The notes under the pieces were generated by a model. The model worked only from the letters and a program-made list of their open reading frames with translations, searched no databases and was not told the origin of the DNA. The position numbers and the translations under genes are program-made. Of a stretch of DNA of 18,879 nucleotides, positions 3,017 to 18,879 are shown piece by piece. How positions within the stretch are numbered: position 1 is the stretch's first letter; each line of letters opens with the position of its first letter. The DNA is from a virus, in the UHGV virus genome UHGV-1689020; one strand, given 5' to 3'.

Positions 3017-3036
3017 ACCCCGTGACCAGTCACGGG
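3017..3036. promoter_or_regulatory. palindrome family B copy 1 (CCCCGTGAC-CA-GTCACGGGG), operator-like site upstream of the candidate promoter
   Basis: 20-bp 9-2-9 palindrome; its core CGTGAC-NN-GTCACG recurs at 7574-7587 and 14960-14973; lies between the stop of the 3099-3386 gene and the candidate -35. Confidence 0.6.
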
Positions 3037-4199: not shown

Positions 4200-7100
4200 T
4201 TACCCAAAGAAAGCGCCCTGCTCTTCGTAGCTGCATGAGCTATTCCCCGTAATGTATTCACGTAACCGCCGCAGCTCATTGCTGGAAAGGTGATCCATGA
4301 ACTCTGTGAGGTACAGAGATGCAAACGTCATAGCTATGCTGGCTGATGACCATGATGACATAGTGGCCAACTCCTCACTGGAAAGCGCACTCATCGCCCA
4401 GGACTCAGGTACAGCCACTGGCAACACGGCCAAAGCCTCAGAAATTACTGAATGAGGGGCGTTTTGAACCTGCTCGTTTGTGGATCGCGTTTTATCATCC
4501 ATATATATATTGAGATCCAAATCGCGATCCATTTCGATGGCTGTCTTCTCGGCTTTACGCGTTTTTAGGGTTAGGCCATCTTTCTGACGCTGAACAAGAA
4601 TATCCAGCATAAATGCCGCTGATTCAGGCTCAACAAAACGCAAGGTTGGACGCTTATCGCCGTCTCTGCCGCGACGTTTACCTGTTTTAAGGCCAAGAGA
4701 GTCGCAAATGTTTTTAAACAACGCTTCCGGCACTTTAGGCTTCCCTTTTGGCGTCATAAAACCACCAATGTGCAGAACGTTATTCAACAGGTCACGGCGT
4801 TCGGCTGTCATGAGGTTATCTCGAGCGAATTTGAGACGCTCCTGAGTCGCCTCGCCGGTCATAGTCTCAGGGTTGATACCGCAGTCGATAAAGTACTGCC
4901 GGAGAGTTGCTGATTTAAGCGCATAGAAACCGCGCGCCCCGACTTCAACAGTAGGAGTAGCTTTTACCTTGTGATCGATTATTCCAGGGAATTTAGTTTT
5001 AAAGACATCATCAGCCTGCTCGCGAGTCATCGCGGTCACTACAAAATATTGCCACTGTCCCGCCTGACGGTATGCGTAGGTAAAATTGATGGCTGCTTCT
5101 TCCCGGTCGTAACGACGAGCTGTTACCTCATCTAAAAGCATTGTTTCATAGCGGCGAACTTTGTCTCGAGCACCATCGAAATAGAATTTCAGCGTGCCTT
5201 CTTCAACCGGTAGTTTCAGTTCGTTTTCAATATCCCAGCGGACAAGTTTTGCCTGTTCTTCAAGCGTCAGCGCGCGTTTTTTTAGCAGTTTTTCACGCTC
5301 TGATTCTTGTGGAGTTTCTGTATTGAGGTGCAGATCCAGTGTCTGTTCCCACACAATATCCCGCGCTTCTTTACGCAGATCTTTACCGATATCATTCGCA
5401 GCATAATCGGTGGCCAGCGGTGATACCTTATAACCGTCGCTGTGCATGATGCAGATCATGTTGCTGGCGTAGTCGTTACGCGCAGTCGCTTCAATTGCGG
5501 CTGCTTTAATTTTCATCCTGGTAAAGTCGGTATTGGCCACCCCCATTGATATACGGTCGCCATCGAAAACGACATCCGTAAGTTCACCGTTCATACCTGC
5601 GGTAGCAAGCAATGCCTGGGCGAATGCTCGTTCTATTTTTTGCGGGTCAGTTTCACGTTTTGCACGAGCTTTATCAAAGCCGATAATAAATTCTTTTGCT
5701 GTACGGTCGCGGCGTAGCATTTGCACTGCGTCGCTGGGTACAACTTCACCACAGAACATGCCGAAATGACGGTCAAAATGTTTTTGCTCAATCGACACGC
5801 CGGATGAAATAGACGGGCTATAAATCAGGCCGTCGTATTTTTTGACCATCTTTTTCGGTTGATTGGTAAATGCTTCAACTTCTGGCTCTGGTTTGTTTTT
5901 CTGGTTTACACACAGAAATTTCTTACCAGGAAAATGCATTCTCAGGGTGGCTGTCACATCTTCTGCAAAGGTGGAGCTGTCGGTGGCCAACATGATTTTT
6001 TCGCCATCCGATACAGCTTTCACCACCTCGGTCATGATGCGATCTTTTTCTGTATAAAAAACCCGGATTGGCTCACCTGTTTCGCGGTTGCGAACATCAA
6101 CAGGTAATTCAATTACGTGGATCTGCAGCCATGCCGGTAAACCTAGTTCTTCACGGCGTTTCATAGCCAGTTCAGCCAGGTCAACCAGCAGATCGTTCGC
6201 ATCAGCATCCACCATTATTGGGTGTTGTTCCGTTCTGGCCAGCGCGTCAATTAGCGTATTGAATACAGCCACTGGGTTTTCCATAGCCCGACCGGAAAGA
6301 ACGGCACGTAGCCCTTGTGTGGCCTCGTCAAAGCCAAAATAGTCGTGCTGGCGCATCAACGGTTGCCAGCAGTTTTTAACAATCGAGTTTATGCAGATGG
6401 TCAGTTTACTGGCGTATGGAGCCATTTCCTGATAGCCAGGGTCCTGATAGTGCAGGATATCGGCTTTTACACCTTTTCCTTCTGTCATCATTTCCCACAG
6501 GCCACCAATAAGGGAGACACGGTGAGCAACAGAGATACCACGTTCTGAGCTATGCATTAACGGTCGTAACAATCCAGTAGATTTGCCGGAACCCATACCA
6601 GCACGGACGATGACTATCCCCTGTAGTGATTGCACGTACTTCAGGAGATCATCGGTCATTACCGAAGTTTCAAAACGCTTATAGGTGATATGTTGAGGGC
6701 GTTTATTGGGATCAGTTATGCGTTCGCTGAAAGAGCGCGGAGCCTGGGCAATACGGCACTTTTTATTCAGGCGACGGGCAATGTGGTCTTTTACCGTAGC
6801 GCGATAGATATTTTCCAGTCCCATTTCACGCAGAACGATGCAGAACATGTTAAATAAATCTGACGGACTGTTAGGAACCGGGCAGGTTAGCATGCCAATA
6901 TCCACCGCTCTCAGCAGCTCTTTGGCAAAAGTACGACGGTTATCCCGCTTAATTGTCTTCAGGCGGTTGAGCGTCAGAGATAGCAAATCAGTACCGGTTT
7001 TCAGGCGGTTTGCTGTTGCAAATAGTTGACGTGCTGTTTCACGAAGTCCACGTAGTTTGTGCAGGTCGTTGAAGTCACTGCACTCCATTTGCGGATCGTC

Positions 7101-8195
7101 TTCAAAAGTTGGATAGACGCAGCGGACATCGTTGAATTTCGATAAGATTTCATAGCCAGTCCGCAGGCCGGTATTCCCTTTTCCTTCTGTGGCAGATTTC
7201 CGGTCATTATCCAGTGCGCAGGTGATTTTTACCGCCGGGTACATGTTTACCAGTTGTTCCACAACATGAACCATGTTGTTAGCGGATACAGCGACAACCA
7301 CAGCGTCAAAGCGTTTATCTTTTTTCGTGGCAAGCCAGATGGATGCACCAGTAGCAAAACCTTCTGTAACAGCGATGTTTTGCGCCCCTTTCAGCTCACC
7401 GATAACAAAGCAGGCACCGACGAAATCGCCGCTGGTTACTGCGCTGGTCTGGTATTTCCCACCTTGTTTGTCGATTCGCTGCCAACCCACAATACGACCA
7501 TCGTAACGACCGTCCAGGTGAGCCAGAGGGATAGCCATATATGTGGTTGGTCCCCGACTCCATTTCGCACTGTCGTGACTGGTCACGCGACGCACATCAC
7601 ATGAACTAAAAACGTCACGAATACCTTTTTTAATCGCATATGGCCATGAGCCGTCTTCAGCCGGAGCATGTTCCCACGCGCTGTGGAATGCCAGCCATCC
7701 CAGCAAACGTTCATGGTCCATTTGGTTGTTTTTCAGGTCATTAATTCGTTTTTGTTCTTCACGGCGACGACGTGCTTCGGCCTGACGTTCTATTCTTTCC
7801 CGTTCTTCTTCCGGTTGTGCGACCACGGTCGCATTATTCCGTTGTTGCTCACGGCGATATTCAGAAAACAGGAAGGAGAAACCGCTCCATGAGCCAGCAT
7901 CGCTGCCTTTATGGACGAAGTTAATGAACGGGTAATCAATCCCTTTGCTGTGTTCCAGCCGGGAGTAAATTTCTACGCGTCCTTTCAGGCTCTTTTCGAG
8001 AGCTTCTGGAGATGTTTTATTGTATGAAGAGTAACGCTCAACCCCCCCGCGAGGGTTGAGTTGGATGTTGTCGGAACAGGCAGGCCAGTTGATACCAGCC
8101 ATCTGTGCCAGCTCGGTTAGTTCATCCCGTGCTGCTTCAATTAGCGAGAACGGATCGCTGCCAAAGCGATCCGCATAGAAATCGTTTAATGTCAT
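4200..8195 (-). CDS. repA: multifunctional replication protein RepA (primase-helicase), N15 RepA-like
   Basis: 1331-aa ORF; Walker A motif GMGSGKST in the central part; size, orientation and position between telN and cB match N15 repA as I recall it (about 1300 aa). Confidence 0.88.
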   Translation of the reverse strand: MTLNDFYADRFGSDPFSLIEAARDELTELAQMAGINWPACSDNIQLNPRGGVERYSSYNKTSPEALEKSLKGRVEIYSRLEHSKGIDYPFINFVHKGSDAGSWSGFSFLFSEYRREQQRNNATVVAQPEEERERIERQAEARRRREEQKRINDLKNNQMDHERLLGWLAFHSAWEHAPAEDGSWPYAIKKGIRDVFSSCDVRRVTSHDSAKWSRGPTTYMAIPLAHLDGRYDGRIVGWQRIDKQGGKYQTSAVTSGDFVGACFVIGELKGAQNIAVTEGFATGASIWLATKKDKRFDAVVVAVSANNMVHVVEQLVNMYPAVKITCALDNDRKSATEGKGNTGLRTGYEILSKFNDVRCVYPTFEDDPQMECSDFNDLHKLRGLRETARQLFATANRLKTGTDLLSLTLNRLKTIKRDNRRTFAKELLRAVDIGMLTCPVPNSPSDLFNMFCIVLREMGLENIYRATVKDHIARRLNKKCRIAQAPRSFSERITDPNKRPQHITYKRFETSVMTDDLLKYVQSLQGIVIVRAGMGSGKSTGLLRPLMHSSERGISVAHRVSLIGGLWEMMTEGKGVKADILHYQDPGYQEMAPYASKLTICINSIVKNCWQPLMRQHDYFGFDEATQGLRAVLSGRAMENPVAVFNTLIDALARTEQHPIMVDADANDLLVDLAELAMKRREELGLPAWLQIHVIELPVDVRNRETGEPIRVFYTEKDRIMTEVVKAVSDGEKIMLATDSSTFAEDVTATLRMHFPGKKFLCVNQKNKPEPEVEAFTNQPKKMVKKYDGLIYSPSISSGVSIEQKHFDRHFGMFCGEVVPSDAVQMLRRDRTAKEFIIGFDKARAKRETDPQKIERAFAQALLATAGMNGELTDVVFDGDRISMGVANTDFTRMKIKAAAIEATARNDYASNMICIMHSDGYKVSPLATDYAANDIGKDLRKEARDIVWEQTLDLHLNTETPQESEREKLLKKRALTLEEQAKLVRWDIENELKLPVEEGTLKFYFDGARDKVRRYETMLLDEVTARRYDREEAAINFTYAYRQAGQWQYFVVTAMTREQADDVFKTKFPGIIDHKVKATPTVEVGARGFYALKSATLRQYFIDCGINPETMTGEATQERLKFARDNLMTAERRDLLNNVLHIGGFMTPKGKPKVPEALFKNICDSLGLKTGKRRGRDGDKRPTLRFVEPESAAFMLDILVQRQKDGLTLKTRKAEKTAIEMDRDLDLNIYMDDKTRSTNEQVQNAPHSVISEALAVLPVAVPESWAMSALSSEELATMSSWSSASIAMTFASLYLTEFMDHLSSNELRRLREYITGNSSCSYEEQGAFFG
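4481..4531. other. candidate replication origin element inside the 3' part of repA
   Basis: 9-bp inverted repeat TGGATCGCG ... CGCGATCCA flanking a 33-bp AT-rich spacer containing (AT)5 and three GATC sites within about 50 bp; the N15 ori is reported to lie within the 3' end of repA (recalled from literature). Confidence 0.35.
7574..7587. repeat. palindrome family B copy 2 (CGTGAC-TG-GTCACG), inside repA coding sequence
   Basis: exact 14-bp core shared with 3019-3034 (inverted centre) and 14960-14973. Confidence 0.6.
7818..7833. repeat. palindrome family A copy 1 (TGCGACC-AC-GGTCGCA), sopC/centromere-like, inside repA coding sequence
   Basis: 16-bp 7-2-7 palindrome identical to copies at 10261-10276 (inverted) and 16787-16802; differs from the F sopC SopB site TGGGACCACGGTCCCA (recalled) at one position per arm. 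Confidence 0.65.
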
Positions 8196-8318
8196 TTTTT
8201 AGCCATTCCATGCGAATTATGTTTTTTCGGGTTGAAAAAATCCGCAGGAGCAGCCACAATAAACACATCTTGAATTGACGGAATCCGTCGCGTTGTTGTG
8301 GCTGCTTCCTGAAAAGGA

Positions 8319-8346
8319 CCCGAGTTTGCCGACTCGGGTTTTTTTT
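8319..8346. terminator. hairpin plus T-tract between cB and repA, possible bidirectional terminator
   Basis: CCCGAGT-TTGCCG-ACTCGGG followed by TTTTTTTT on the + strand; on the minus strand the same hairpin is followed by UCCUUUUCAGG; also a 10-bp inverted repeat GCAGCCACAA (8250-8259) / TTGTGGCTGC (8296-8305) just upstream. Confidence 0.45.
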
Positions 8347-8440
8347 CGTCTTTTTTCTGCTGCTGTAACCTGAGTCAACCCACAGAACATATGCCCTGCA
8401 TTAAACCAGATTTACAGCAAACAATAAACCCCGTATTAAG

Positions 8441-9037
8441 TCATCTACCCTCAACCATGAATGATTTGATCGTTCCGACTATTTGGTGAACAAATTCAAG
8501 ATCGCTTTTCCTGAAGATGGCGCGTTGTGAGTTTGTTCCATCCAGATAGTAATTTTCATCATCAAAACGGGCCAGGCGCTGGATAGTGATATTTCCTGCA
8601 GTATCACGAACCAGAACATCCTCGCCGGGGACCAGTTCCAGCGCAGAATCGACCAGGAGAAAATCGCCTGGCTGATAGTTTCCCTGCGTAAGATTGCTGA
8701 TAGTTAACGCATACACAGTATTGCGCTGGCTGATGAATGGCAGGAATCGCTCAGTATTTGGAACCTGTCCCGGCTTCCACTCTTCATCCGGCCCACTTTC
8801 AGTTGTGCCAATAACAGGAATGCGGTCAGGGTCATATTCTGTCCCATATAGCACCCAATGCACTGGCTTGCGTAAGCACTTAGCCAGGGCAATACCTATC
8901 TCCAGTGACGGCATTACGTCGCCACGTTCTAAGTTTTGGACGCCTGCTATAGAGATATCGACAGCCTCAGCAACTTCTCGCAACGTCAGCTTCATCTCTA
9001 AACGGCGTGCTTTCAGTCGTTCGCCTCGTGTTTTCAT
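8441..9037 (-). CDS. cB: prophage repressor CB (HTH-XRE N-domain, CI/LexA-like C-domain apparently lacking the catalytic Ser motif)
   Basis: 198-aa ORF; N-terminal HTH LTLREVAEAVDISIAGVQNLERG; C-terminal ...PGDFLLVD... fold signature but no GxSM motif; divergent from cro across an operator-containing intergenic region. Confidence 0.8.
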   Translation of the reverse strand: MKTRGERLKARRLEMKLTLREVAEAVDISIAGVQNLERGDVMPSLEIGIALAKCLRKPVHWVLYGTEYDPDRIPVIGTTESGPDEEWKPGQVPNTERFLPFISQRNTVYALTISNLTQGNYQPGDFLLVDSALELVPGEDVLVRDTAGNITIQRLARFDDENYYLDGTNSQRAIFRKSDLEFVHQIVGTIKSFMVEGR

Positions 9038-9059
9038 ACTGTAATCATAAATGATCTTC

Positions 9060-9075
9060 TTATAGCTGGCTATAA
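9060..9075. promoter_or_regulatory. immB operator O1 (TTATAGC-TG-GCTATAA)
   Basis: 7-2-7 palindrome with perfect arms, 23 bp upstream of the cB ATG in the cB-cro intergenic region. Confidence 0.6.
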
Positions 9076-9085
9076 AATTTATTTA

Positions 9086-9101
9086 TTATAGCTGGCTTTA
9101 A
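9086..9101. promoter_or_regulatory. immB operator O2 (TTATAGC-TG-GCTTTAA)
   Basis: second copy 26 bp from O1 with one arm mismatch; a TATAAT hexamer at 9117-9122 lies between it and the cro start. Confidence 0.55.
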
Positions 9102-9128
9102 TTGTTGTTTATTGTTTATAATAACAAC

Positions 9129-9350
9129 ATGAAACCAGAAGAACTTATTCGCCACTTTGGCAGTGTAGAAAAAGCAGCGGCAGGGGTAGGTGTAACACCC
9201 GGAGCTGTTTACCAATGGTTAACCGCTGGAGAGATTCCTTCATTGCGGCAAAGCGATATTGAAGTTCGTACTGCTTATAAGCTGAAGAGTGACTTTACAA
9301 CTCGGCGGGTAAAGCAGTCGATTAAGGAGAGTCGTAAGCGTGGAGCTTGA
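9129..9350 (+). CDS. cro: Cro-like HTH regulator
   Basis: track ORF 9102-9350 begins at a TTG; preferred start is the ATG at 9129 (MKPEELIRHFGSVEKAAAGVGVTPGAVYQW...); HTH motif; divergent from cB; no obvious Shine-Dalgarno, possibly short-leader transcript. Confidence 0.65.
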   Translation: MKPEELIRHFGSVEKAAAGVGVTPGAVYQWLTAGEIPSLRQSDIEVRTAYKLKSDFTTRRVKQSIKESRKRGA

Positions 9351-10050
9351 GTATATACGCAGCTGCGTCTCTACGGCATTGGCTGATGTTCATTATCGCC
9401 AGCGTGGCATTCTGGAGGTCCAGCTTGAGCAGATGCGTCTCGGTAGGTCAGGACGGTTTAACAATAAACCAGTCCGGTCAATCAGTGTGGGGGATGATAA
9501 CTCATACGAAGTGTCCGTTCCTGCTGAGCCGGTTAGATTCCACCAGGGGAAAACATTTAAACAATCATCAATGTTGCTCACTGATATTGATTTTCAGAGC
9601 GCCAGCTGGCGCAGGGCTATTGGTCAGTTGAATAACGAGGAATCAGCCTGGCTTTATTATTGCTACGGATGCAAGCCTGATTACAACAATGATGTGATTG
9701 TTTGTCAGTGGTTATGGCTTGATTTTCTGGTTGCTCATTCGGGGGGCGGCTTTAAAAAAATGAAGGCCTCCACGAAAAAAGCCATGCGGAAATTGATTTA
9801 TTACGCGGCACAGCAGGTTAAATCAGAACTTACGTGTGCTGAGGCAGTTGATGAGAGAGAACAGGACAGGCATCTGAGTTTTCTACTGAATATATCTATT
9901 GATAGCTGGAGACAAGATTATAAAGAACGCTGGCTTTTAATTAAGTCGCGATGTCTGAGCTTAAATCGAACTGCATTATTAAATGCGGCGGAGAAGCGCA
10001 GTGAAATCATCAAACGCCATCGGGCAGGAAGTGCCATTCTGCCTTTGTAA
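9340..10050 (+). CDS. putative late-gene antiterminator (Q-like), assigned by cB-cro-Q synteny
   Basis: 236-aa ORF starting at GTG 9340 with AAGGAGA 10 nt upstream; overlaps the cro stop by 11 nt; function is inferred from position only, I could not confirm Q motifs by eye. Confidence 0.45.
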   Translation: MELEYIRSCVSTALADVHYRQRGILEVQLEQMRLGRSGRFNNKPVRSISVGDDNSYEVSVPAEPVRFHQGKTFKQSSMLLTDIDFQSASWRRAIGQLNNEESAWLYYCYGCKPDYNNDVIVCQWLWLDFLVAHSGGGFKKMKASTKKAMRKLIYYAAQQVKSELTCAEAVDEREQDRHLSFLLNISIDSWRQDYKERWLLIKSRCLSLNRTALLNAAEKRSEIIKRHRAGSAILPL

Positions 10051-10303
10051 ACAAGTTATGTTCAGGAAACCGTCGAAGCCAGAATTAAGGTATTCGGGGG
10101 TAAGAAATGAATATGTTATCTGGTGTCCAACTTGTGGTTACAGGACACGACCAGATAGTAATAAGCAGTCTGTAATTGCCGATTGGTATTTATCAAATCA
10201 GCCAGGTAATAAGCATATAGAAAATCTTTGGATTAAGCGTTACTTGGAAATCAGAGAGGGTGCGACCGTGGTCGCACAAGAAAATGAAAATAACGCCATT
10301 TAA
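9983..10303 (+). CDS. small Cys-containing protein (CxC ... CxxC), function unknown; alternative start at ATG 10058
   Basis: 106-aa ORF overlapping the 3' end of the Q-like gene; contains FCLC and CPTCG; no clear Shine-Dalgarno for either start; its 3' end carries palindrome A copy 2. Confidence 0.35.
   Translation: MRRRSAVKSSNAIGQEVPFCLCKQVMFRKPSKPELRYSGVRNEYVIWCPTCGYRTRPDSNKQSVIADWYLSNQPGNKHIENLWIKRYLEIREGATVVAQENENNAI
10261..10276. repeat. palindrome family A copy 2 (TGCGACC-GT-GGTCGCA, inverted orientation), sopC/centromere-like
   Basis: exact reverse-complement of the 16-mer at 7818-7833 and 16787-16802; located in the overlap of two small ORFs after the Q-like gene. Confidence 0.65.
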
Positions 10304-10487
10304 GCAGGGGCCGATGACGCATGATGAAGCAGAGCGTCTTTCAGATACTTATCGGCGGCGTGGTAAGAAAGTTCTGGTTGTTCGTTCTGATTTTTTAGGT
10401 GATGGATATTGCGTTTATGTTCATTTACCTGAATCAGAAAGAACGCCAAAACCATCCAGAACATATCAACAGAAAATTTGGGTATAG
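10284..10487 (+). CDS. hypothetical small protein
   Basis: track ORF 10260-10487 starts at a GTG inside the palindrome; first in-frame ATG is 10284; no strong Shine-Dalgarno, start uncertain. Confidence 0.4.
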   Translation: MKITPFKQGPMTHDEAERLSDTYRRRGKKVLVVRSDFLGDGYCVYVHLPESERTPKPSRTYQQKIWV

Positions 10488-10510
10488 ATAAACGTTGAGG
10501 AGAATTATTC

Positions 10511-11110
10511 GTGACTAATCAGATTATTTACGACAGGAAACGGTCTGATGTAATGATTGATCTTGAAACAATGGGTACTAACACATGTGCTCCAATTGTT
10601 TCTATCGGGGCAGTGTTTTTTTCTCCAGAAAGTGAGGAATTAGGTCCTACTTTTTATGTGCCAGTGAATCTCAGAAGCTCGATGTTGAATGGAGGTATCG
10701 CCGATGGTGATACCATTTTATGGTGGTTGAAACAGAGCAAGGAAGCCAGAGCCGCTATTTGTACTAATGATGCCCTTGATATTAAGGATGCACTTTTTGA
10801 ATTATCACACTTTATTACTTGCCATGCATGTAATTTAAAAAAGTTGAAAGTATGGGGAAATGGAGCAACGTTCGATAATGTAATTTTACGCGGTGCTTAT
10901 GAGCGCGTTGGCTTAGCCTGTCCGTGGGAATATTTTAATGATCAGGATGTTCGAACAATCGTTAATCTTGGTCAGTTTATTGGTTTTAATCCTAAAAAAG
11001 ATATGCCATTTGATGGCGAACGACACAATGCCTTGGCTGATGCTATTCATCAGGCTAAATATGTATCCGCAATTTTCTCCCGTCTTGTAAAAGGGCAAGG
11101 AGAATCGTAA
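10511..11110 (+). CDS. DEDDh-type 3'-5' exonuclease (DnaQ-like fold)
   Basis: 199-aa ORF, GTG start with GAGGAG 8 nt upstream; motifs MIDLETMG (exo I), WGNGATFDNVIL (exo II), ERHNALADAIHQAKY (exo III with His). Confidence 0.75.
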   Translation: MTNQIIYDRKRSDVMIDLETMGTNTCAPIVSIGAVFFSPESEELGPTFYVPVNLRSSMLNGGIADGDTILWWLKQSKEARAAICTNDALDIKDALFELSHFITCHACNLKKLKVWGNGATFDNVILRGAYERVGLACPWEYFNDQDVRTIVNLGQFIGFNPKKDMPFDGERHNALADAIHQAKYVSAIFSRLVKGQGES

Positions 11111-11529
11111 TGGCAAAGGCTTTTACACCAGAACAGAGGGAAGAACTGAATAAACAAATTGTGGAACTCGTGCGCCTGAATGGACGAGGAACGGTTAGGC
11201 AACTTGCGGATGAAACTGGTATTAGCCGGTGTGCTGTTAGTCGTTTATCAAGAGAGCTTGCTGCCAGTGGTGATTTGTATATCTCTGGCTCCGGGATATT
11301 TCTGTCTGCACAAGCACGCAAGGACTGGCAAAACGCCCGTAAAAAACTATCAAGAGTAAAGCCGAAGAAATCGGTAGTGGTTGATCCAGACCTTATCTGG
11401 TCATTACCTGACGGAGAAATACGTCGTTACGACAGGCGCTTGAACATGATTTGTCACGATTGCCGGAAAAGTGAAGTTATGCAGCGTGTGCTGGCTTTTT
11501 ATCAGGGAAATTTACAGGAGGTGGCGTAG
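11110..11529 (+). CDS. HTH DNA-binding protein, function unknown
   Basis: 139-aa ORF; ATG overlaps the upstream stop (TAATG); AAGGAGA upstream; HTH-like segment GTVRQLADETGISRCAVSRLSREL. Confidence 0.6.
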   Translation: MAKAFTPEQREELNKQIVELVRLNGRGTVRQLADETGISRCAVSRLSRELAASGDLYISGSGIFLSAQARKDWQNARKKLSRVKPKKSVVVDPDLIWSLPDGEIRRYDRRLNMICHDCRKSEVMQRVLAFYQGNLQEVA

Positions 11530-11819
11530 TGAATATCGACACCACGATAACGATCGATACGGCCCTAAATATCGGTCTGGCACTTCTCGGTTGGTTTTAC
11601 ATCATGTTCAGTGCGGGGAAGTGGGCGGCCTCTGTTTTTCTAAAGCAGTGGGGAAAGCACCGCAAACAGGAAAGACGCCAGAAAGTGTTAGAGGCGTTCT
11701 ATGACGCATTTGAACTTAGCCGCATTGAGCCAGGCACAACAGCCAAGATAGCGACAAAAGGCGACCTGATGATAGTGATGTTCCGACAGGAGAGAGCAGA
11801 GAAAGGGGAATCAGCATGA
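11529..11819 (+). CDS. small membrane protein, function unknown
   Basis: GTG start overlapping the upstream stop (TAGTG) with AGGAGGTGG upstream; hydrophobic segment LNIGLALLGWFYIMFSAG. Confidence 0.5.
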   Translation: MNIDTTITIDTALNIGLALLGWFYIMFSAGKWAASVFLKQWGKHRKQERRQKVLEAFYDAFELSRIEPGTTAKIATKGDLMIVMFRQERAEKGESA

Positions 11820-12448
11820 AATTTTCCAAATTTTCTGAGTTGGTGAATCGTATTTTGTCCAACAACCACAGCCATCGTCGCGATATGGATGTAACAATCG
11901 TTATTCATTCGCCTGGCAGCATTGGTTCAACACCCTCAGTTGAGGTTCAGTCAATTCACGCTGGTTTTGATTGGGATTCCGGGAAAGTGCTGATTTTTCC
12001 ATCACAGCCACTGACCACGCTAACACCAGAGCAGGTTGCTGATATCACTGATAGTGTGCGCAAAGGTCAGTCTTGGCACGCATATCAGGAATATAAGAAG
12101 CATAAAGAGCAGTTGGAAAAATTGTCGATTGAACTGGATGCCGCAAAACAGCGCATTGCAGAGCTGGAGGGTAATCGCACGGCGCTGGCGGCGGAGAATG
12201 CGGGGCTTAAACAGTCGGAGAAGGAATTTAATAACTTCTGTCGTCAGGAGTACTACGGTTGGGAGGACAACTTCACGGAAACCCCAGCCACCGACGCTTT
12301 CCTGGCTGAAATTGAACGCAAAGCAATCCGCAAGTTCATTAACAGCATTGAACACATCCTGCGTGACAAGCTGTCTCCGTATGATACCGAAGAGATGCTT
12401 GAGGCTATGCGTATTTTTCTGGAAGAACAGGAAGGTGAGCAAAAATGA
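11816..12448 (+). CDS. hypothetical protein with coiled-coil region
   Basis: 210-aa ORF, ATGA overlap with the upstream gene; heptad-like region LEKLSIELDAAKQRIAELEGNRTALAAENAGLK. Confidence 0.55.
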   Translation: MKFSKFSELVNRILSNNHSHRRDMDVTIVIHSPGSIGSTPSVEVQSIHAGFDWDSGKVLIFPSQPLTTLTPEQVADITDSVRKGQSWHAYQEYKKHKEQLEKLSIELDAAKQRIAELEGNRTALAAENAGLKQSEKEFNNFCRQEYYGWEDNFTETPATDAFLAEIERKAIRKFINSIEHILRDKLSPYDTEEMLEAMRIFLEEQEGEQK

Positions 12449-12759
12449 CGATCACAAAACAACGTGTAGAAGAAATCATATCCCGTATTGAAATGTATGG
12501 GCATGGTGCCGGGTATACCGCTGATGAGGTTTATGACCTTGCTGTACTGGCGCTGAATTTATCAAATATCGCAAAACTCAAGCGATACGAGCTTGATATG
12601 GATGGTTGTGACTCGTTCGGTCAGGATTGTGGCGCTGACATGACTGAAGATTCTGATGGCGATTATGTCCTGTTTGATGACGTAGTTAAGTTGTTTGAGT
12701 TTGATACATTCGAAAGCCCAGTAAAGGAGGCAGCCAGTGAGCGGAAAAAGAATGACTAA
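12445..12759 (+). CDS. hypothetical acidic protein
   Basis: 104-aa ORF, ATGA overlap with the upstream gene, GGTGAG upstream. Confidence 0.5.
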   Translation: MTITKQRVEEIISRIEMYGHGAGYTADEVYDLAVLALNLSNIAKLKRYELDMDGCDSFGQDCGADMTEDSDGDYVLFDDVVKLFEFDTFESPVKEAASERKKND

Positions 12760-12961
12760 CAGAGAGCTTGTCGATGCCGCGATTAAGCTTGCTGGTGATT
12801 TTTATTCAATGATGGGGTACACGCATCGCCCAGGCTTCAAATATTGGGAGTCTCCTCACCCGCAAGAGCAACTGGTATTTCAAATGGCCTGCCGTGCTTT
12901 TGAGGTTATTCGCGGTTCTGATGTGATGGACGCCGTTGCCGACTTGGAGGATGAAGAGTGA
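12737..12961 (+). CDS. hypothetical protein
   Basis: 74-aa ORF from GTG 12737 with AAGGAGG 6 nt upstream; overlaps the previous ORF by 23 nt. Confidence 0.5.
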   Translation: MSGKRMTNRELVDAAIKLAGDFYSMMGYTHRPGFKYWESPHPQEQLVFQMACRAFEVIRGSDVMDAVADLEDEE

Positions 12962-13506
12962 GCGAAATTAATTATCAGGCACTGCGTGATGCGGCAGAAA
13001 AGGCAACGAAAGGGAGCTACATCGTAGGGCATACATCTGTTAACCAGCACGGCAATTTAACAGGAGTTTTTGTTTGCCAAAAATGGAAAGGAGAACCCGG
13101 TGGCGTGATTGCAGAATGTCATGTTAACTGCCTGGTTGAAACAGATGCTCAGGCTTACGCAAACGCTGAATTTATTGCTGCCTTTAATCCAAATGTTGCG
13201 CTGGCACTACTGGATGAACGGGAAAGAAACCAGCAATACATAAAATCCCGCGACAAGGAGAACGAGGATATTGCGCTAACGGTAGGGAAGCTGCGCGTTG
13301 AGCTTGAAGCAGAAAAACAGCGGGCAAAAGTTCTATTTATGGAAAATGCTCGGCTTAAGTCAGGCATAGCCGGTCTGATACACCTCGGTATTCGATATGC
13401 AGATGTTGAGGTCATGAAAATTGCTGGAGATGCCCAGCTTTCTACCCCATGCACTGACAGCATCATAAACAGCATTGCAACAGGCATTCGCATCAAAGGA
13501 GAGTGA
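12958..13506 (+). CDS. Ead/Ea22-like protein
   Basis: 182-aa ORF from GTG 12958 (GGAGGA upstream); internal segment AEFIAAFNPNVALALLDERERN resembles the Ea22-family signature I recall (...NPATVLALLDE...); C-terminal coiled-coil. Confidence 0.55.
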   Translation: MSEINYQALRDAAEKATKGSYIVGHTSVNQHGNLTGVFVCQKWKGEPGGVIAECHVNCLVETDAQAYANAEFIAAFNPNVALALLDERERNQQYIKSRDKENEDIALTVGKLRVELEAEKQRAKVLFMENARLKSGIAGLIHLGIRYADVEVMKIAGDAQLSTPCTDSIINSIATGIRIKGE

Positions 13507-13507
13507 T

Positions 13508-13771
13508 ATGGCAACTTTAACAAAAAAAGAACGGGCATGGTTGAACGAATTACAGGACGTTCTTGATCGCTGCCCATCACCGAAAAAAATTGGTTTTTAC
13601 ACCATTGGCGATAAAAGCATTTACCTGTATGACCTGCGCCGCATGGATGAAATCATGGAGGCTCTTGATAATCGTTCGTCGATGGATTGGTGTGTTGCTG
13701 TCCATGATATGAATGCCGGATTTGATGAAAGGATTTTGTTCCCCTCATCAGTTGAAAGCACTGCGGGTTAA
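13508..13771 (+). CDS. hypothetical protein
   Basis: track ORF 13475-13771; preferred start is the ATG at 13508, preceded by AAAGGAGAG and 2 nt after the upstream stop. Confidence 0.5.
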   Translation: MATLTKKERAWLNELQDVLDRCPSPKKIGFYTIGDKSIYLYDLRRMDEIMEALDNRSSMDWCVAVHDMNAGFDERILFPSSVESTAG

Positions 13772-13781
13772 GGAGTAACAC

Positions 13782-14168
13782 ATGACCACTATTACCAAAG
13801 AGCGACTACTGACAATCAAACAGTGGCGCGAAACATACGGACCTGGTAGCAACGTTGTACTGCCAGCAGAAGAAGCGGAAGAACTGGCACGAATTGCTCT
13901 GGCATCGCTGGAAGCAAAACCAATAGGTGCATTCCACATTGCAGAACAGCAAGTTGACGGCACAAGTGACTACCTCAAGGATGGAGAATGGCCTATTGAT
14001 AATGGAATTATTGAGGTCTACGCCGCTCCACCCGTTCCAGTAGTACCGGAAGAAAAACCAATGCCTAATCCTCTTAGCATGTACGCGGTTGATGCTGTTG
14101 CCGCTATTGCAGAGGTGAGAGGCTGGAATGCCTGCCGCGCTGCTATGCTTCAGGGAAAAGGAGAGTGA
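13782..14168 (+). CDS. hypothetical protein
   Basis: 128-aa ORF, AAGGAG 7 nt upstream; begins MTTIT like the next gene. Confidence 0.55.
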   Translation: MTTITKERLLTIKQWRETYGPGSNVVLPAEEAEELARIALASLEAKPIGAFHIAEQQVDGTSDYLKDGEWPIDNGIIEVYAAPPVPVVPEEKPMPNPLSMYAVDAVAAIAEVRGWNACRAAMLQGKGE

Positions 14169-14169
14169 T

Positions 14170-14622
14170 ATGACCACTATAACCGATAAGAAACAGTATC
14201 CAGGCGAGCAATATCTTAATGAGCTGATCACCAACATAGAGTTTGCTGCAAGGGCACCAGTTGAAGTCGTGAGAGCGATGGCAGCAGAGCTACAGAAGCG
14301 GCGCGAAGCTGATAGTGCAGAACCTGTAAGCCAAACTTACAAGTTAACTTTTGAGCAATGGCTGGAACGGCAGCACGGCAAAATTGATGTTGATTGCGGC
14401 TGTGTGAGCACTGAAACGCTTCTGCACTGGATGCGTGTGGCGTATGAGGCTGGCAACTCTCCGGTAACTCCGGATGGTCATGTTCAGTTTTCTGTTTCAC
14501 TTCCTGCAGCGTTTGGTGGAGATAAATATTTTATTGATGGTGTATTTCAACCTTTGAGATATGAGCGTGACTGTGAAAGGGCGGTTGTGGTCGCTGGCGG
14601 TGTAGTTAATTGGGTTAAGTAA
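14170..14622 (+). CDS. hypothetical protein
   Basis: track ORF 14128-14622; preferred start is the ATG at 14170, preceded by the same AAAGGAGAGTGATATG junction seen at 13495-13510. Confidence 0.55.
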   Translation: MTTITDKKQYPGEQYLNELITNIEFAARAPVEVVRAMAAELQKRREADSAEPVSQTYKLTFEQWLERQHGKIDVDCGCVSTETLLHWMRVAYEAGNSPVTPDGHVQFSVSLPAAFGGDKYFIDGVFQPLRYERDCERAVVVAGGVVNWVK

Positions 14623-14637
14623 TTTTCAGGAGGATTT

Positions 14638-14964
14638 ATGGCGCTGACACCGGCAGAACGGCAAAGGAGACGCAGGGAACGGTTGAAGAAGGAAGGCACA
14701 TCAAGACGGGAGTGGATTCTAGAACCTGACGAGTTACGTATGTTGGGGGAAATTTGTGTATTGCGTAGACCAGGGCGAGTTCCATATTCGGAGAACGAAG
14801 TCATTGGTTTGCTGATCAGGAAAAACTATAAGGAGCTGCAGAAGCAGCTATCTACTACTTGCCCGCGATGTGGTCAAAAAATGCCTGTTTCAGAATGCAT
14901 TTTTGATGGCGAAGGGTCATGCCACCTTACAACCACGAGGCTGAAACTTGCGCTCAAAGCGTGA
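14638..14964 (+). CDS. small basic protein with C-terminal Cys cluster (possible DNA-binding regulator)
   Basis: 108-aa ORF, AGGAGGA upstream; N-terminal LTPAERQRRRRERLKKEG, C-terminal CPRCG...C...C; stop codon lies inside palindrome B copy 3. Confidence 0.55.
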   Translation: MALTPAERQRRRRERLKKEGTSRREWILEPDELRMLGEICVLRRPGRVPYSENEVIGLLIRKNYKELQKQLSTTCPRCGQKMPVSECIFDGEGSCHLTTTRLKLALKA

Positions 14965-14973
14965 CTGGTCACG
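14960..14973. promoter_or_regulatory. palindrome family B copy 3 (CGTGAC-TG-GTCACG) overlapping a stop codon and the next gene's ribosome-binding site
   Basis: CGTGACTGGTCACG runs straight into GGAGGG (the Shine-Dalgarno of the ORF at 14983); same core as 3019-3034 and 7574-7587. Confidence 0.6.
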
Positions 14974-14982
14974 GAGGGATAA

Positions 14983-15225
14983 ATGGATAAAAAGGCATTG
15001 CTTTTTGAAATGATACGAAAACGGAGCGAAAAGAGCTTTTCTGATGGTGGTGATGGGTTTGTTTTCGCTTCGATGCTTGCTTTTGATGTTGGGTTAAATA
15101 GCAGAATTGTTAAAAGGATGCTTGATTCTGCTGTCCGTACTGGACTTCTTGAGAAAGTTGATCGTGGCATAGGGAGAGAGCATAAGTATCGGGCCACACA
15201 GCAGTTTACGCAGTTAATTCATTGA
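14983..15225 (+). CDS. hypothetical small protein (possible winged-helix)
   Basis: 80-aa ORF with GGAGGG 5 nt upstream. Confidence 0.5.
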   Translation: MDKKALLFEMIRKRSEKSFSDGGDGFVFASMLAFDVGLNSRIVKRMLDSAVRTGLLEKVDRGIGREHKYRATQQFTQLIH

Positions 15226-15307
15226 AAATTGACCGTCAAGTTTGAGTTTTAACCTGTAATTTTATACAGTATAAATAACCTTTTTTAGTTAAATGGTATG
15301 AGATCTA

Positions 15308-15511
15308 ATGTCTGAAGCAGCCGTATCAACTCTTGAACAACTCGATTCAAATTTAAGAGATATTGACGCCGTTCTGGATCTGGTTAGCGTCACCCTGGCT
15401 TCTCCAGAAGCCAGCCTACATATTGGTGAGGTTTCACGACTCATCAACATGTCGCGAGAGATTGCCCAGCATTGTCAGAAAACTATCGCTGTTGAGCGTT
15501 CACATCATTGA
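15308..15511 (+). CDS. hypothetical small acidic protein
   Basis: 67-aa ORF after an AT-rich intergenic region; weak Shine-Dalgarno; convergent with the toxin-antitoxin pair. Confidence 0.4.
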   Translation: MSEAAVSTLEQLDSNLRDIDAVLDLVSVTLASPEASLHIGEVSRLINMSREIAQHCQKTIAVERSHH

Positions 15512-15553
15512 TGCACACCCCGCCCTTCTGGACGGGGTAGTAAAAGAGTCTAA

Positions 15554-15841
15554 TTAATAAACAGCGCGAATATCGATGGTTGCGCCGCAGGCATGAGCAT
15601 ATTTAGCCAAAGTTTTCATACTTGCCCCTAAAGGATTGCTTTCCAGGCGGCTGATGGCTGACGGTCGCAACCCCATTCGTTCAGCCAGAGCTGATTTCGT
15701 TAAACCTGCTCTTTCCCTCATTTCGTATAGCATTTCGACCATCTCCAGCTCTTTGTCGGCCTCTTCATATCCTTTGACGGCTTCTGGAGTGTTGAGGAGT
15801 TTTTCTTTTACTTCGTTAAACGGGATGCCTTTCGCTTTCAT
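15554..15841 (-). CDS. HTH-XRE antitoxin (HigA-like)
   Basis: 95-aa ORF; HTH GLTKSALAERMGLRPSAISRLE; ATG overlaps the stop of the upstream toxin gene (ATGA). Confidence 0.75.
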   Translation of the reverse strand: MKAKGIPFNEVKEKLLNTPEAVKGYEEADKELEMVEMLYEMRERAGLTKSALAERMGLRPSAISRLESNPLGASMKTLAKYAHACGATIDIRAVY

Positions 15842-16152
15842 CAGTTCATCTCCTTCAGGCGAGTTCTGGCGATTTCGATAGCCTTCACCGGTGTTTTCTG
15901 TGTCTTTTTTACAAATGCATGCAATAGATAAATTTCGTTACCAGTCGCGTAGGCGTACAGCGTTCTTGCGATGTTTTTATCCCCTACTCGTAGTTCAAAA
16001 AGCCCTCCACCTATTACACGGCTATGGGGCATCTTCAGTTTGTTGCCTTCTTTCTCCAGTCGCTCAATTAATCTGGTCATGCGACCTCGCAAATCATCTG
16101 GTAGTTCAAGCAGTTCATCCAGTGCTGCAGGGTGGGTTATCACGTTAAACAT
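15841..16152 (-). CDS. RelE/ParE-superfamily toxin, Gp49-like (HigB-like)
   Basis: track ORF extends to 16197, but GGAGG sits 8 nt upstream of the ATG at 16150-16152 (MFNVITHPAALDELLELPDD...); C-terminal LFELRVGDKNIARTLYAYATGNEIYLLHAFVKKTQKTP is the Gp49-like toxin pattern as I recall it; toxin-upstream, antitoxin-downstream order as in higBA. Confidence 0.75.
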   Translation of the reverse strand: MFNVITHPAALDELLELPDDLRGRMTRLIERLEKEGNKLKMPHSRVIGGGLFELRVGDKNIARTLYAYATGNEIYLLHAFVKKTQKTPVKAIEIARTRLKEMN

Positions 16153-16317
16153 ATTATAGCCTCCATATCCATAAAATACACCAAAACAAGAAAACAACGC
16201 AAATTAAAAATTTCACTAAAAAGCGAAAAATAACACTGGATGTGTTCGTTTGGCAGAGTTACAGTTCGTGTCATTGAGAGGCAATAACCCACTAACTATA
16301 TGAATTTGGAGGATATT

Positions 16318-16539
16318 ATGAATTATCAAGGTAACGAAAAAATGCGCGACGATGTTGCGGAGATAGCTAACGAACTGTATGAGTTGTGGCAGAAGGTTGA
16401 ACGTTTCGAAAAGGAATATGGTTTCAACAGTACCAACCTAACAGACCGACTGGCTGGTCGCTTAGTTGGGACTATGGGGCCAAAACTGGCTGAGTTGAAC
16501 CGCTTTATGGCTGATGTTGATTTCCAGTTTCAAGATTGA
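16318..16539 (+). CDS. hypothetical small protein
   Basis: track ORF 16300-16539; GGAGG lies 5 nt upstream of the second ATG at 16318. Confidence 0.5.
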   Translation: MNYQGNEKMRDDVAEIANELYELWQKVERFEKEYGFNSTNLTDRLAGRLVGTMGPKLAELNRFMADVDFQFQD

Positions 16540-16552
16540 TTAGAGAGGCGTT

Positions 16553-16780
16553 ATGAATATTAATGAAATTCGTGGAAATATGACTGAAGCGGCCCTGAGT
16601 GTGGAATGTGTTATGCGTGGATACCCACGCATTTCCCTGAAAGAGTTAAGCGAAGCCTGTTTTTTGAGTCAAGCTGCCGTTGAATTTATCATCGAACAGA
16701 TGATCTGTTTTGGGGTTGCAAAGCGTAGCGGATCTGGTCGATATTCTTTGACCGATGAATATAAGCAGGCAACTTTCTAA
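16553..16780 (+). CDS. hypothetical small protein (possible DNA-binding)
   Basis: 75-aa ORF with GAGAGG upstream. Confidence 0.5.
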   Translation: MNINEIRGNMTEAALSVECVMRGYPRISLKELSEACFLSQAAVEFIIEQMICFGVAKRSGSGRYSLTDEYKQATF

Positions 16781-16782
16781 AA

Positions 16783-16806
16783 GCTGTGCGACCACGGTCG
16801 CACAGC
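16783..16806. promoter_or_regulatory. palindrome family A copy 3, extended (GCTGTGCGACC-AC-GGTCGCACAGC), sopC/centromere-like, at the head of the late region
   Basis: 24-bp 11-2-11 palindrome containing the 16-mer core (16787-16802); intergenic, 3 nt after the stop of the previous gene. Confidence 0.65.
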
Positions 16807-16887
16807 ACAAAAACGAAAAAGCTTGGCAAAATGACGGTTTTTAGTTATTGTTTTGTTAAGTTGGGTTTTTTGTACCCAACAGCCAAC

Positions 16888-16914
16888 AAGCCGCCTTTAT
16901 GGCGGTTTTTTTGT
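16888..16914 (+). terminator. rho-independent terminator candidate (possible tR'-like) in the late regulatory region
   Basis: CCGCC-TTTAT-GGCGG followed by TTTTTTT. Confidence 0.5.
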
Positions 16915-16928
16915 GCCTGAAAAGTGGG

Positions 16929-16956
16929 CGCAGGACAAGTTGCAGCTTGTCCTGCG
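16929..16956. other. perfect 11-bp stem hairpin without U-tract
   Basis: CGCAGGACAAG-TTGCAG-CTTGTCCTGCG; a further 14-bp palindrome GCGATGCGCATCGC sits at 17000-17013. Confidence 0.5.
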
Positions 16957-17047
16957 GTCAACCCATGCCAGAGCTATAGGCTGAACCTAAAGCCCACCCG
17001 CGATGCGCATCGCCGGGTTAGCTTACCCAGGCAAAAAAATAATAGCT

Positions 17048-18124
17048 ATGTTCAAAACCACTAATATTCATGGCGCACAACTCGTTTGCGCAGATTCTCT
17101 GCAATTTATCAAAACCATCCCTGATAACTCGGTCAATTTGATTGCAACAGACCCACCATACTTCGGCGTAAAGGCTAACGCATGGGATAACCAGTGGGAT
17201 AGCGATGCTGACTTTTTGGGGTGGATTGACGAATTTTTGGCAGAATTTTGGCGGATATTGGCCCCTAATGGCAGCCTGTATATGTTTACCGGCTCTCGCC
17301 TTGCGTCAAAAATTGAATTATTAACTCGCGACCGTTTCAATGTTCTGAACCATATCATTTGGGCTAAACCAAGTGGTATGTGGCGCGGTTGTCATAAAGA
17401 AAGTTTAAGGGCTTATTTTCCTGCTACTGAAAGAATATTATTTGCAGAGCATTACGGCGCGTCAGGTTATGCTAAAGGTCAGTCAGGTTATGCTTCAAAA
17501 TGTGCAGATTTAAGAAAAAATATTTTTTCTCCACTAATTGATGCTTTTTCGCTGGCTCGCCGTCAGTTAGATATATCAGCCGCAGACATTAATTCAGCGA
17601 CAGGAAAGCAGATGTGTTCACACTGGTTTTCTTATTCGCAGTGGCGGCTTCCATCATTAATTGATTTTAATAAACTATGCGAATTATTTCGCAGGAAGGC
17701 AGATTCACTCGGTGTCCCGTGTCCATATCCTTTTAATGTTGATTATTCAGAACATGAAAAGCGTTATAGCGATCTGAAATTGCATTATGAGGAAGTAAAG
17801 AAGCAGTATGATGATTTGAAGGCTCAGTATGAAAATTTACGCCGTCCATTTCATGTTACTGCTGATGTACCTTATACCGATGTATGGGAGTTTCCTCCTG
17901 TGCAATATTATCCTGGCAAGCACCCATGTGAAAAACCTGCAGCGATGATGGAACATATTATAAAGAGTAGTTCACGCCCCGGAGATATCGTTGCCGATTT
18001 CTTTATGGGATCAGGCTCAACTATTAAAGCTGCGCTGAAGTTAGGACGTCAGGCAATAGGTATTGAGATTGAGGGCGAACGTTATCTTCAGACAGTTGAT
18101 GAAGTGAAAAAGTTATTTGAGTAA
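17048..18124 (+). CDS. DNA methyltransferase (beta-class amino-MTase; DPPY motif, so likely N6-adenine or N4-cytosine)
   Basis: track ORF starts at 17003, but the typical MTase N-terminus begins at ATG 17048 (MFKTTNIHGAQLVCADSLQFIKTIPDNSVNLIATDPPYF); AdoMet motif FFMGSGST near the C-terminus; no adjacent restriction endonuclease candidate. Confidence 0.8.
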   Translation: MFKTTNIHGAQLVCADSLQFIKTIPDNSVNLIATDPPYFGVKANAWDNQWDSDADFLGWIDEFLAEFWRILAPNGSLYMFTGSRLASKIELLTRDRFNVLNHIIWAKPSGMWRGCHKESLRAYFPATERILFAEHYGASGYAKGQSGYASKCADLRKNIFSPLIDAFSLARRQLDISAADINSATGKQMCSHWFSYSQWRLPSLIDFNKLCELFRRKADSLGVPCPYPFNVDYSEHEKRYSDLKLHYEEVKKQYDDLKAQYENLRRPFHVTADVPYTDVWEFPPVQYYPGKHPCEKPAAMMEHIIKSSSRPGDIVADFFMGSGSTIKAALKLGRQAIGIEIEGERYLQTVDEVKKLFE

Positions 18125-18219
18125 CTGGAGAATATATTCCCCTGCCGTTTTTGGTAGGGGTTATTTTCGCCATATAGTTTCCAAGCCGAAACCTCAGCAA
18201 CTATTGCGAGGTAAGAGAT

Positions 18220-18492
18220 ATGAAGATGGATGAACTATACAGAAGTGCACCTTATGGTAGCGCTGGTCTTGCTGCGTTCTTTGCCAGCCTGTCATTGCAG
18301 GATTGGAGCTTCATTATCGGTGTCGCGTTCAGCATTATCCTCGGTGTGCTTACATACCGGCTCAATAAACGCGAGCAGATGAAGCGCACGAAGATATTGC
18401 AGGACATATTGGATAAAACTAATACCAATAATCTTTCTGCTACAGCGATGGTTATTGGAGAGCTGGGGAAGAGAGCACCGAAGGAAATATGA
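18220..18492 (+). CDS. holin, pinholin-like with MKM dual-start motif
   Basis: 90-aa ORF with GAGGT upstream; two hydrophobic segments ([14 protein letters not shown] and [18 protein letters not shown]) then a charged tail; stop overlaps the endolysin start; architecture resembles phage 21 S as I recall it. Confidence 0.65.
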
Positions 18493-18781
18493 TGCAGTCA
18501 TCATTACGCAAAGCTGTCACAGCTGCTATTGGTGGCGGGGCTATTGCCATAGCGTCTATGCTCATCACTGGCCCAAGTGGTAACGATGGTCTGGAAGGTG
18601 TCAGTTACATACCATACAAAGATATTGTTGGCGTATGGACTGTATGTTACGGACACACTGGAAAAGACATCATGCTAGGTAAAACGTATACCGAAGCAGA
18701 ATGCAAAGCTCTCCTGAATAAAGACCTTGCCACTGTCGCCAGACAAATTAACCCGTACATCAAAGTCGATATACCGGAAAC
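18489..18781 (+). pseudogene. SAR endolysin (phage 21 R-like lysozyme) truncated after codon 98 by an IS insertion
   Basis: residues 1-98 ([50 protein letters not shown]...KVDIPET) match my recollection of the phage 21 SAR endolysin; from 18782 the frame reads IS-derived sequence ([16 protein letters not shown]) and the expected C-terminal 65 or so residues are absent. Confidence 0.8.
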
Positions 18782-18879
18782 GGCACTGTTGCAAATAGTC
18801 GGTGGTGATAAACTTATCATCCCTTTTTGCTGATGGAGCTGCACATGAACCCATTCAAAGGCCGGCATTTTCAGCGTGA
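18782..18879 (+). mobile_element. IS26-family (IS6 family) insertion sequence, left end, continuing beyond the window
   Basis: GGCACTGTTGCAAA terminal inverted repeat at 18782-18795 followed by TAGTCGGTGGTGATAAACTTATCATCC...GCTGATGGAGCTGCAC and the transposase start; matches the IS26 end as I recall it, with one apparent substitution. Confidence 0.85.
18845..18879 (+). CDS. tnpA: IS26-family transposase, 5' fragment (first 11 codons, runs off window)
   Basis: ATG at 18845 translates MNPFKGRHFQR, the N-terminus of the IS26 transposase as I recall it. Confidence 0.8.
   Translation, partial: MNPFKGRHFQR

Follow-up and report, generated by a model that had tools for sequence, protein, structure and literature searches.

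What reads an inverted repeat that recurs in three identical copies, kilobases apart, on the DNA of one phage? The question is raised by UHGV virus genome UHGV-1689020 (hereafter the window, meaning the whole stretch of 18,879 nt that was analysed), in which the 16-mer TGCGACCACGGTCGCA (TGCGACC-AC-GGTCGCA) lies within the replication gene repA, after the antiterminator gene Q, and at the head of the late region. The window represents the right arm of a linear, N15-like E. coli plasmid-prophage and runs from a hairpin telomere to an IS26 in the endolysin gene. Linear phage-plasmids of E. coli, PhiR46_1 and pCAVP367-48 among them, match it at 96-99% identity; the DNA of its backbone shares ~76% identity with phage N15. 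Judged by sequence comparison, the three 16-mers are very probably binding sites of SopB (ParB family, type Ia) and orthologues of the N15 centromere sites IR1, IR2, and IR3. The observations that carry this reading are the identity of the sequence, the orthology of its positions, selection at the level of the DNA, and N15-type sopAB genes in near-identical replicons.

Three exact copies of one inverted repeat

An exact-match scan of the window placed the 16-mer at 7818-7833 (+ strand), 10261-10276 (- strand), and 16787-16802 (+ strand), with 2.4 and 6.5 kb between the copies; no further copy was found in the window when up to three mismatches were allowed. Both the positions and the surroundings given in the initial annotation (repA, small open reading frames (ORFs) after Q, and intergenic DNA at the head of the late region) were correct, and so was its statement that three copies exceed chance: 0.10 matches would be expected, and the observed count was not reached in any of 200 dinucleotide-preserving shuffles, which rules out a chance origin. 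Its description of the repeat as a 16-bp palindrome holds for the two perfect 7-bp arms and fails for the central 2 bp, which are not palindromic and appear inverted at site 2, where the + strand reads TGCGACCGTGGTCGCA with GT at the centre. The symmetry extends further at site 2, to 8-bp arms and 18 bp in total (10260-10277), and at site 3, to 10-bp arms and 22 bp in total (16784-16805, CTGTGCGACC-AC-GGTCGCACAG). Compared with the N15 genome and the published IR1-IR4 oligonucleotides, the window sites match the consensus (G)TGCGACC-NN-GGTCGCA(C) of the N15-type IR family.

Site 1 (7818-7833) falls inside repA (4200-8195, - strand), which encodes a CyRepA1-family replication protein of 1331 aa (NF042913, 260 bits; RefSeq annotation), and takes up the last base of codon 121 and codons 122-126; on the repA strand it reads ..T GCG ACC GTG GTC GCA and encodes x-A-T-V-V-A. 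Site 2 (10261-10276) begins 210 nt past the stop codon of Q (9340-10050, + strand; PF06323, 282 bits), within a small conserved ORF (9983-10303, + strand), in its 3' part. The ORF overlaps Q at the 3' end of that gene and encodes 100-106 aa with a CxxC...CPxC pattern. This small ORF has a weak Lar-like match (PF14354, 21.1 bits, under the 28.6 cutoff), shows 3-nt periodic variation and a conserved translation across the family, and has a counterpart called as a 100-aa gene in three records (L004, L005, L010) and left unannotated in N15 RefSeq. The ATG of a second small ORF follows at 10284, 8 nt after site 2. Site 3 (16787-16802) is intergenic: it starts 7 nt past the stop codon of a 75-aa ORF and ends 20 nt 5' of the -35 hexamer of the late promoter, with its centre ~28 bp upstream of that hexamer.

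The window sites occupy the places of N15 IR1, IR2, and IR3

In N15 the centromere is split into four dispersed sites, IR1-IR4, which share the core GTGCGACC-NN-GGTCGCAC (PMC7205306 Table 4); IR1-IR4 oligonucleotides were built into an N15 centromere, and N15 SopB forms foci on them (PMC7205306). Together with the N15 genome, this table agrees with what the initial annotation had said of dispersed centromere repeats in N15. The exact TGCGACCACGGTCGCA occurs in N15 at 45562 (IR4), and one-base variants of it are found at 33480 inside repA, at 35931 on the 3' side of Q, and at 41125, where 22 bp separate the variant from the annotated late-promoter -35. The flanks of the window sites align with those of the N15 variants, site 1 with 33480-33495, site 2 with 35931-35946, and site 3 with 41125-41140, and by this alignment sites 1, 2, and 3 are positional orthologues of IR1, IR2, and IR3.

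One detail concerns N15 itself. The left arm of IR1 reads AGCGACC in the N15 GenBank entry (33480-33495), corresponding to a synonymous GCT codon that also occurs in four IMG/VR relatives, and the IR1 oligonucleotide in Table 4 of PMC7205306 reads TGCGACC; either the oligonucleotide was idealised or the strains differ.

Selection preserves the arms as DNA

Conservation was followed through an IMG/VR scan with the 18-mer, which returned at least 120 stretches, 94 of them sharing proteins with N15 or pCAVP367-48, and through a comparison of site positions in 30-45 loci taken from the IMG/VR stretches and other fetched loci. All three sites hold their places relative to neighbouring genes. Of 45 loci, 44 place the IR2 centre 221.5 nt beyond the final codon of Q and one places it at 227.5 nt, with Q identities of 67-100%; the IR3 centre lies ~208 nt before the methylase start (marker protein identity 59-100%), and the IR1 centre ~370 nt into repA (marker protein identity 75-100%). 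Throughout, the arms are invariant, and only the two central bases drift in diverged relatives, reading AC, GT, AT, GC, or TC; at IR3 the arms stay unchanged in 28 distinct sequences with diverged flanks. Invariant arms around a free centre are the pattern expected if a helix-turn-helix protein binds as a dimer and recognises nothing but the arms.

The two coding copies, IR1 and IR2, share the reading frame xxT GCG ACC NNG GTC GCA, and wobble positions within the arms were compared with those of flanking codons. At IR2, variation was seen at 0 of 6 wobble positions in the arms and at 30 of 38 in the flanks (p=0.0004); the centre varied, and the amino acid encoded there was T, V, M, A, or S. 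At IR1 the corresponding counts were 1 of 6 and 51 of 60 (p=0.0012). Directly ahead of IR1, the repA codon specifies N, G, H, R, or C depending on the relative, yet its last base is always T, the first base of the site. Because the arm wobble positions are frozen and this codon always ends in T, selection acts on the DNA and not on the protein.

The same alignments bear on the idea that the palindromes act as RNA hairpins, whether terminators or elements of RNA stability or processing, and not as protein-binding DNA. Stable folds are indeed predicted (-11 to -20 kcal/mol; z-scores -1.7, -3.8, and -6.0), and GenBank annotates N15 IR4 as a putative rho-independent terminator. However, none of the three sites is followed by a T run, a terminator scan gave no match at any of them, site 1 sits inside the essential repA ORF and site 2 likewise within an ORF, and the orientation flips between copies. 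The arms, moreover, are frozen without compensatory changes, whereas both genuine stem-loops 3' of the late promoter, 90-150 nt 3' of IR3, keep their pairing through such changes in the family alignment. An RNA function in place of SopB binding is thus extremely improbable. As predicted hairpins with neither T run nor scan match, the sites do not belong to the class of rho-independent terminators, and an Rfam scan of the window returned no family at the three sites, its only matches being C4 and isrK elsewhere.

Complete relatives contain exactly five copies of the motif. The additional two lie 1.1-1.3 kb past the point at which IS26 truncates the window, 220 bp apart and after the lysis genes (17794 and 18014 in locus L001; 18535 and 18755 in L015), in the place that IR4 alone occupies in N15. 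The number of sites thus differs within the family, and in some Klebsiella-like relatives two tandem copies, 47 bp from each other, stand in the position of IR3 (L023, 1785 and 1832; L093, 5555 and 5602).

Cognate SopA and SopB in near-identical replicons

In complete replicons that are 96-99% identical to the window (PhiR46_1, pCAVP367-48), sopA and sopB are found at the far telomere, and 13 of the 15 E. coli records holding at least 80% of the window have sopAB on the same record. The window cannot include the operon because its contig extends from one telomere to IS26 and sopAB adjoins the other telomere. The initial annotation had named a replicon with no ParB/SopB-family gene as grounds for refutation; the near-identical complete relatives, which have the operon, give no such grounds, and the window spans the other end only.

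The SopB proteins of these relatives score 405.5 bits against a cutoff of 274, and SopA 734.2 against 725, with the NCBIfam equivalog models for plasmid ParB/SopB and SopA. SopB of the lineage (for example WP_044067943.1) is 72-74% identical to N15 SopB and has the ParB arginine patch GSRRR; its top PDB matches are F SopB structures, with Spo0J structures distant (E ~3e-4). The recognition helix reads DRNIISRC or DRNIITRC in the two alleles of the lineage, DRNIVNRC in N15, and SRKIITRC in F, so that the residues on either side of the first arginine give D-R-N, as in N15, in both alleles and not the F-type S-R-K. It is this helix region that sets specificity at position 4, and the N15 and F sites differ by one nucleotide per half-site (PMC2910045).

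The two SopB alleles are 83% identical (L001 43667-44656 versus L015 45086-46051), with sopAB DNA at ~90% and backbones at 96-99% identity. Differing SopB alleles on near-identical backbones suggest, at the sequence level, exchange of the partition module. Both alleles keep the D-R-N recognition residues, and the centromere sequence is identical.

With the protein in view, a further alternative can be weighed, namely that the sites bind some other sequence-specific protein, encoded by the phage or its host; a regulator and the phage methyltransferase are examples. The sites of this lineage are known from sequence alone, and a second, unrelated palindrome family in the same genomes (described below) shows that other families of dispersed sites exist. 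Against this, the sequence is identical to sites with demonstrated activity of N15 SopB (PMC7205306), and it is one base per arm away from the F site, whose complex with SopB has been solved (PMC3597684, PMC2910045). The cognate SopB also keeps the N15-type recognition helix, and an 18-bp target far exceeds the site of a methyltransferase. Binding by a protein other than SopB is accordingly very improbable. The operators of the CB repressor were ruled out as the identity of the 16-mer: a 26-bp tandem pair at 9060-9113 between the repressor and cro genes, which matches in position the CB repressor operators annotated in N15, contains a different sequence, TTATAGCTGGCTATAA, and has no relation to the SopB sites.

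A proposed role in partition and a likely second role in late transcription

From orthology with N15 and F, I infer SopB binding, partition activity, and an effect on late genes for the phage of the window. In the proposed mechanism a SopB dimer would read the two GTGCGACC arms and disregard the central two base pairs, and bound SopB would nucleate a larger partition complex. The Walker-type ATPase SopA would move this complex and position it on the nucleoid, through which each daughter cell would inherit the low-copy linear plasmid; sites scattered along the right arm would stand in place of a tandem sopC array. SopB at IR2 and IR3 would in addition help Q-dependent late transcription after induction, presumably by joining the two distant loci.

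The late promoter downstream of site 3, the counterpart of N15 p52, spans 16823-16851 on the + strand, with -35 TTGGCA at 16823-16828, a 17-nt spacer, and -10 TATTGT at 16846-16851. Its hexamers align with the annotated N15 -35 (41162-41167) and -10 (41185-41190) and are conserved family-wide. Following the promoter are a conserved TAAGTTGGG box, an intrinsic terminator (16888-16908, + strand; a stem-loop with a T run, whose N15 counterpart is the stem_loop at 41229-41250), and a second stem-loop. The terminator is presumed to be the target of Q antitermination. The first gene 3' of promoter and terminator encodes a DNA methyltransferase (17003-18124, + strand; PF01555 N6_N4_Mtase) and is annotated as DNA-methyltransferase.

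For N15, Ravin, Rech and Lane reportedly linked binding of the partition protein to phage gene expression as early as 2008 (J Bacteriol 190:3538), so the link to expression suggested in the initial annotation had already been published for that phage. Their IR2 and IR3 mutants are reported to delay lysis, and SopAB, acting together with IR2 and Q, is reported to raise expression from the IR3-linked late promoter. A second role in late transcription is known for N15 and, by analogy, likely in the phage of the window.

It is also possible, though unlikely, that the sites are pure centromeres. Their positions near Q and the late promoter would then go back to an ancestor shared with N15 and would not influence expression. 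Partition alone would explain the conservation of their sequence, and a regulatory effect is not demonstrated by anything in the sequence. The distance between IR2 and IR3 also varies among relatives from 4.4 to 6.5 kb, being 6526 bp in the window, 4379 bp in PhiR46_1, 5210 bp in pCAVP367-48, and 5194 bp in N15. However, a centromere that could be placed freely is not expected to keep so fixed a position, and IR2 stays at its distance from Q and IR3 at ~28 bp before the -35, in relatives whose proteins are only 59-71% identical and despite the variable cargo between the two sites; the lysis delay reported for N15 mutants also speaks against sites with no effect on expression. Strict anchoring on both sides of a variable interval fits the dual role of SopB without proving it here.

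A bolder version holds that a SopB-bridged loop between IR2 and IR3 is obligatory for Q-dependent late transcription across the family, and that the copies in repA and the Lar-like ORF couple replication or early expression to assembly of the partition complex. It draws on two strictly kept positions, that of IR2 behind Q and that of IR3 near -64 relative to the late promoter, which persist across the N15-like family despite turnover of 4-6.5 kb of cargo, and I put it forward as a speculation that is rather to be doubted than believed.

Several points weigh against the favoured interpretation of the 16-mers as SopB sites with a role in both partition and late transcription. The sopAB genes are seen in relatives only, the contig of the window ending in IS26. 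All functional claims rest on orthology with N15, and the late-gene role in N15 itself goes back to what Ravin, Rech and Lane reportedly found. Finally, the variation in IR2-IR3 distance means that a looping model must tolerate a variable loop size.

Both the observation and the interpretation in the initial annotation were correct, and they concern the already known N15 system, met here in an unannotated E. coli relative. There is value for annotation in this, as the records of the relatives all lack marks for these sites. Frozen wobble positions, fixed anchoring despite cargo turnover, and five sites in the lineage are modest additions that support the published dual-role model across the family. 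Together with SopB, the sites would determine stable inheritance and incompatibility of this phage-plasmid lineage, here with an acquired IS26.

The replicon that carries the sites

The left end of the window is a perfect 16+16 palindrome (1-32, ATTCCCCATTATACGC/GCGTATAATGGGGAAT) whose core matches N15 telRL, and assembly contigs with an identical protelomerase all end 180-270 nt upstream of the protelomerase gene (208-2121 in the window). Because the palindrome matches telRL and the contigs end there, the window starts at the hairpin telomere; the palindrome is the hairpin end as read through by the assembler. At the other end, 98 nt (18782-18879) are 100% identical to annotated IS26 copies and form the left end of an IS26 inserted in the endolysin gene. 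All relatives cease to match at 18781, including a contig that is 100% identical over 8220-18781. With IS26 in its endolysin gene, the prophage is probably lysis-defective. The contig break at IS26 hides the DNA linked to it.

Other genes of the window encode a CB-like repressor, Cro, accessory proteins, and a holin. Two RNA genes were identified with Rfam on the - strand, the C4 antisense RNA (2775-2861, 73.6 bits) and the isrK Hfq-binding RNA (2887-2960, 62.5 bits); lying upstream of Icd-like and Bro-N antirepressor genes, they make up an anti-immunity region of N15/P1 type.

A second dispersed palindrome family

A second palindrome, CGTGACTGGTCACG (CGTGAC-TG-GTCACG), also occurs in three exact copies, at 3021-3034 (- strand), 7574-7587 (+ strand), and 14960-14973 (+ strand), a count reached in 0 of 200 shuffles. 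The same three copies are found at orthologous places in N15 and pCAVP367-48. In the repA copy, 0 of 4 wobble positions are variable against 50 of 60 in the flanks (p=0.0016), and the first copy precedes the genes of the isrK/C4 anti-immunity RNAs by ~60 nt. No description of CGTGAC-TG-GTCACG was found in the searchable literature; this conserved family is the most interesting leftover of the analysis.

Comparison with known centromere systems

Chromosomal parS sites of the Spo0J/ParB systems resemble the window sites in being dispersed 16-bp inverted repeats, placed around oriC and often within genes, from which ParB spreads (PMC3597684). They differ in consensus (TGTTNCACGTGAAACA), their ParB is only distantly related, and the element of the window is a phage-plasmid.

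The F plasmid is closer in its binding sequence. Its SopB site is TGGGACCACGGTCCCA (PMC3597684), a 16-bp inverted repeat (TGGGACC-AC-GGTCCCA) bound by a homologous helix-turn-helix ParB, and it differs from the window 16-mer by one base per arm, as the initial annotation had stated and as the published half-site difference bears out (PMC2910045); the Sop proteins of F are homologous to those of the window's relatives. The architecture is another matter. F has 10-12 tandem 43-bp repeats adjoining sopB, whereas the window sites are single and kilobases apart, and in the window's lineage they lie far from sopAB and are paired with a SopB helix of D-R-N and not S-R-K type. No F-type 16-mer was found in the window or in PhiR46_1, and no tandem array of 43-bp F type in the window; an F-type sopC centromere was rejected on these grounds. 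The earlier term 'sopC-like' thus suits the binding sequence and not the arrangement.

The closest system is the N15 centromere (Ravin and Lane, 1999; Grigoriev and Lobocka, 2001; Ravin, Rech and Lane, 2008). The window departs from it in the perfect arms of all three copies (the GenBank IR1 of N15 begins with A and not T), in the central dinucleotides, in the length of cargo between IR2 and IR3, and in the number of sites, four in N15 against five in complete relatives of the window's E. coli lineage. It shares with N15 the core GTGCGACC-NN-GGTCGCAC, N15 IR4 being identical to the window 16-mer. Common to both are also the dispersal along the right arm, with sites in repA, ~210 nt after Q, and directly upstream of the late promoter, and, through the window's relatives, a cognate SopB that is 72-74% identical to that of N15 and has the same D-R-N recognition residues.

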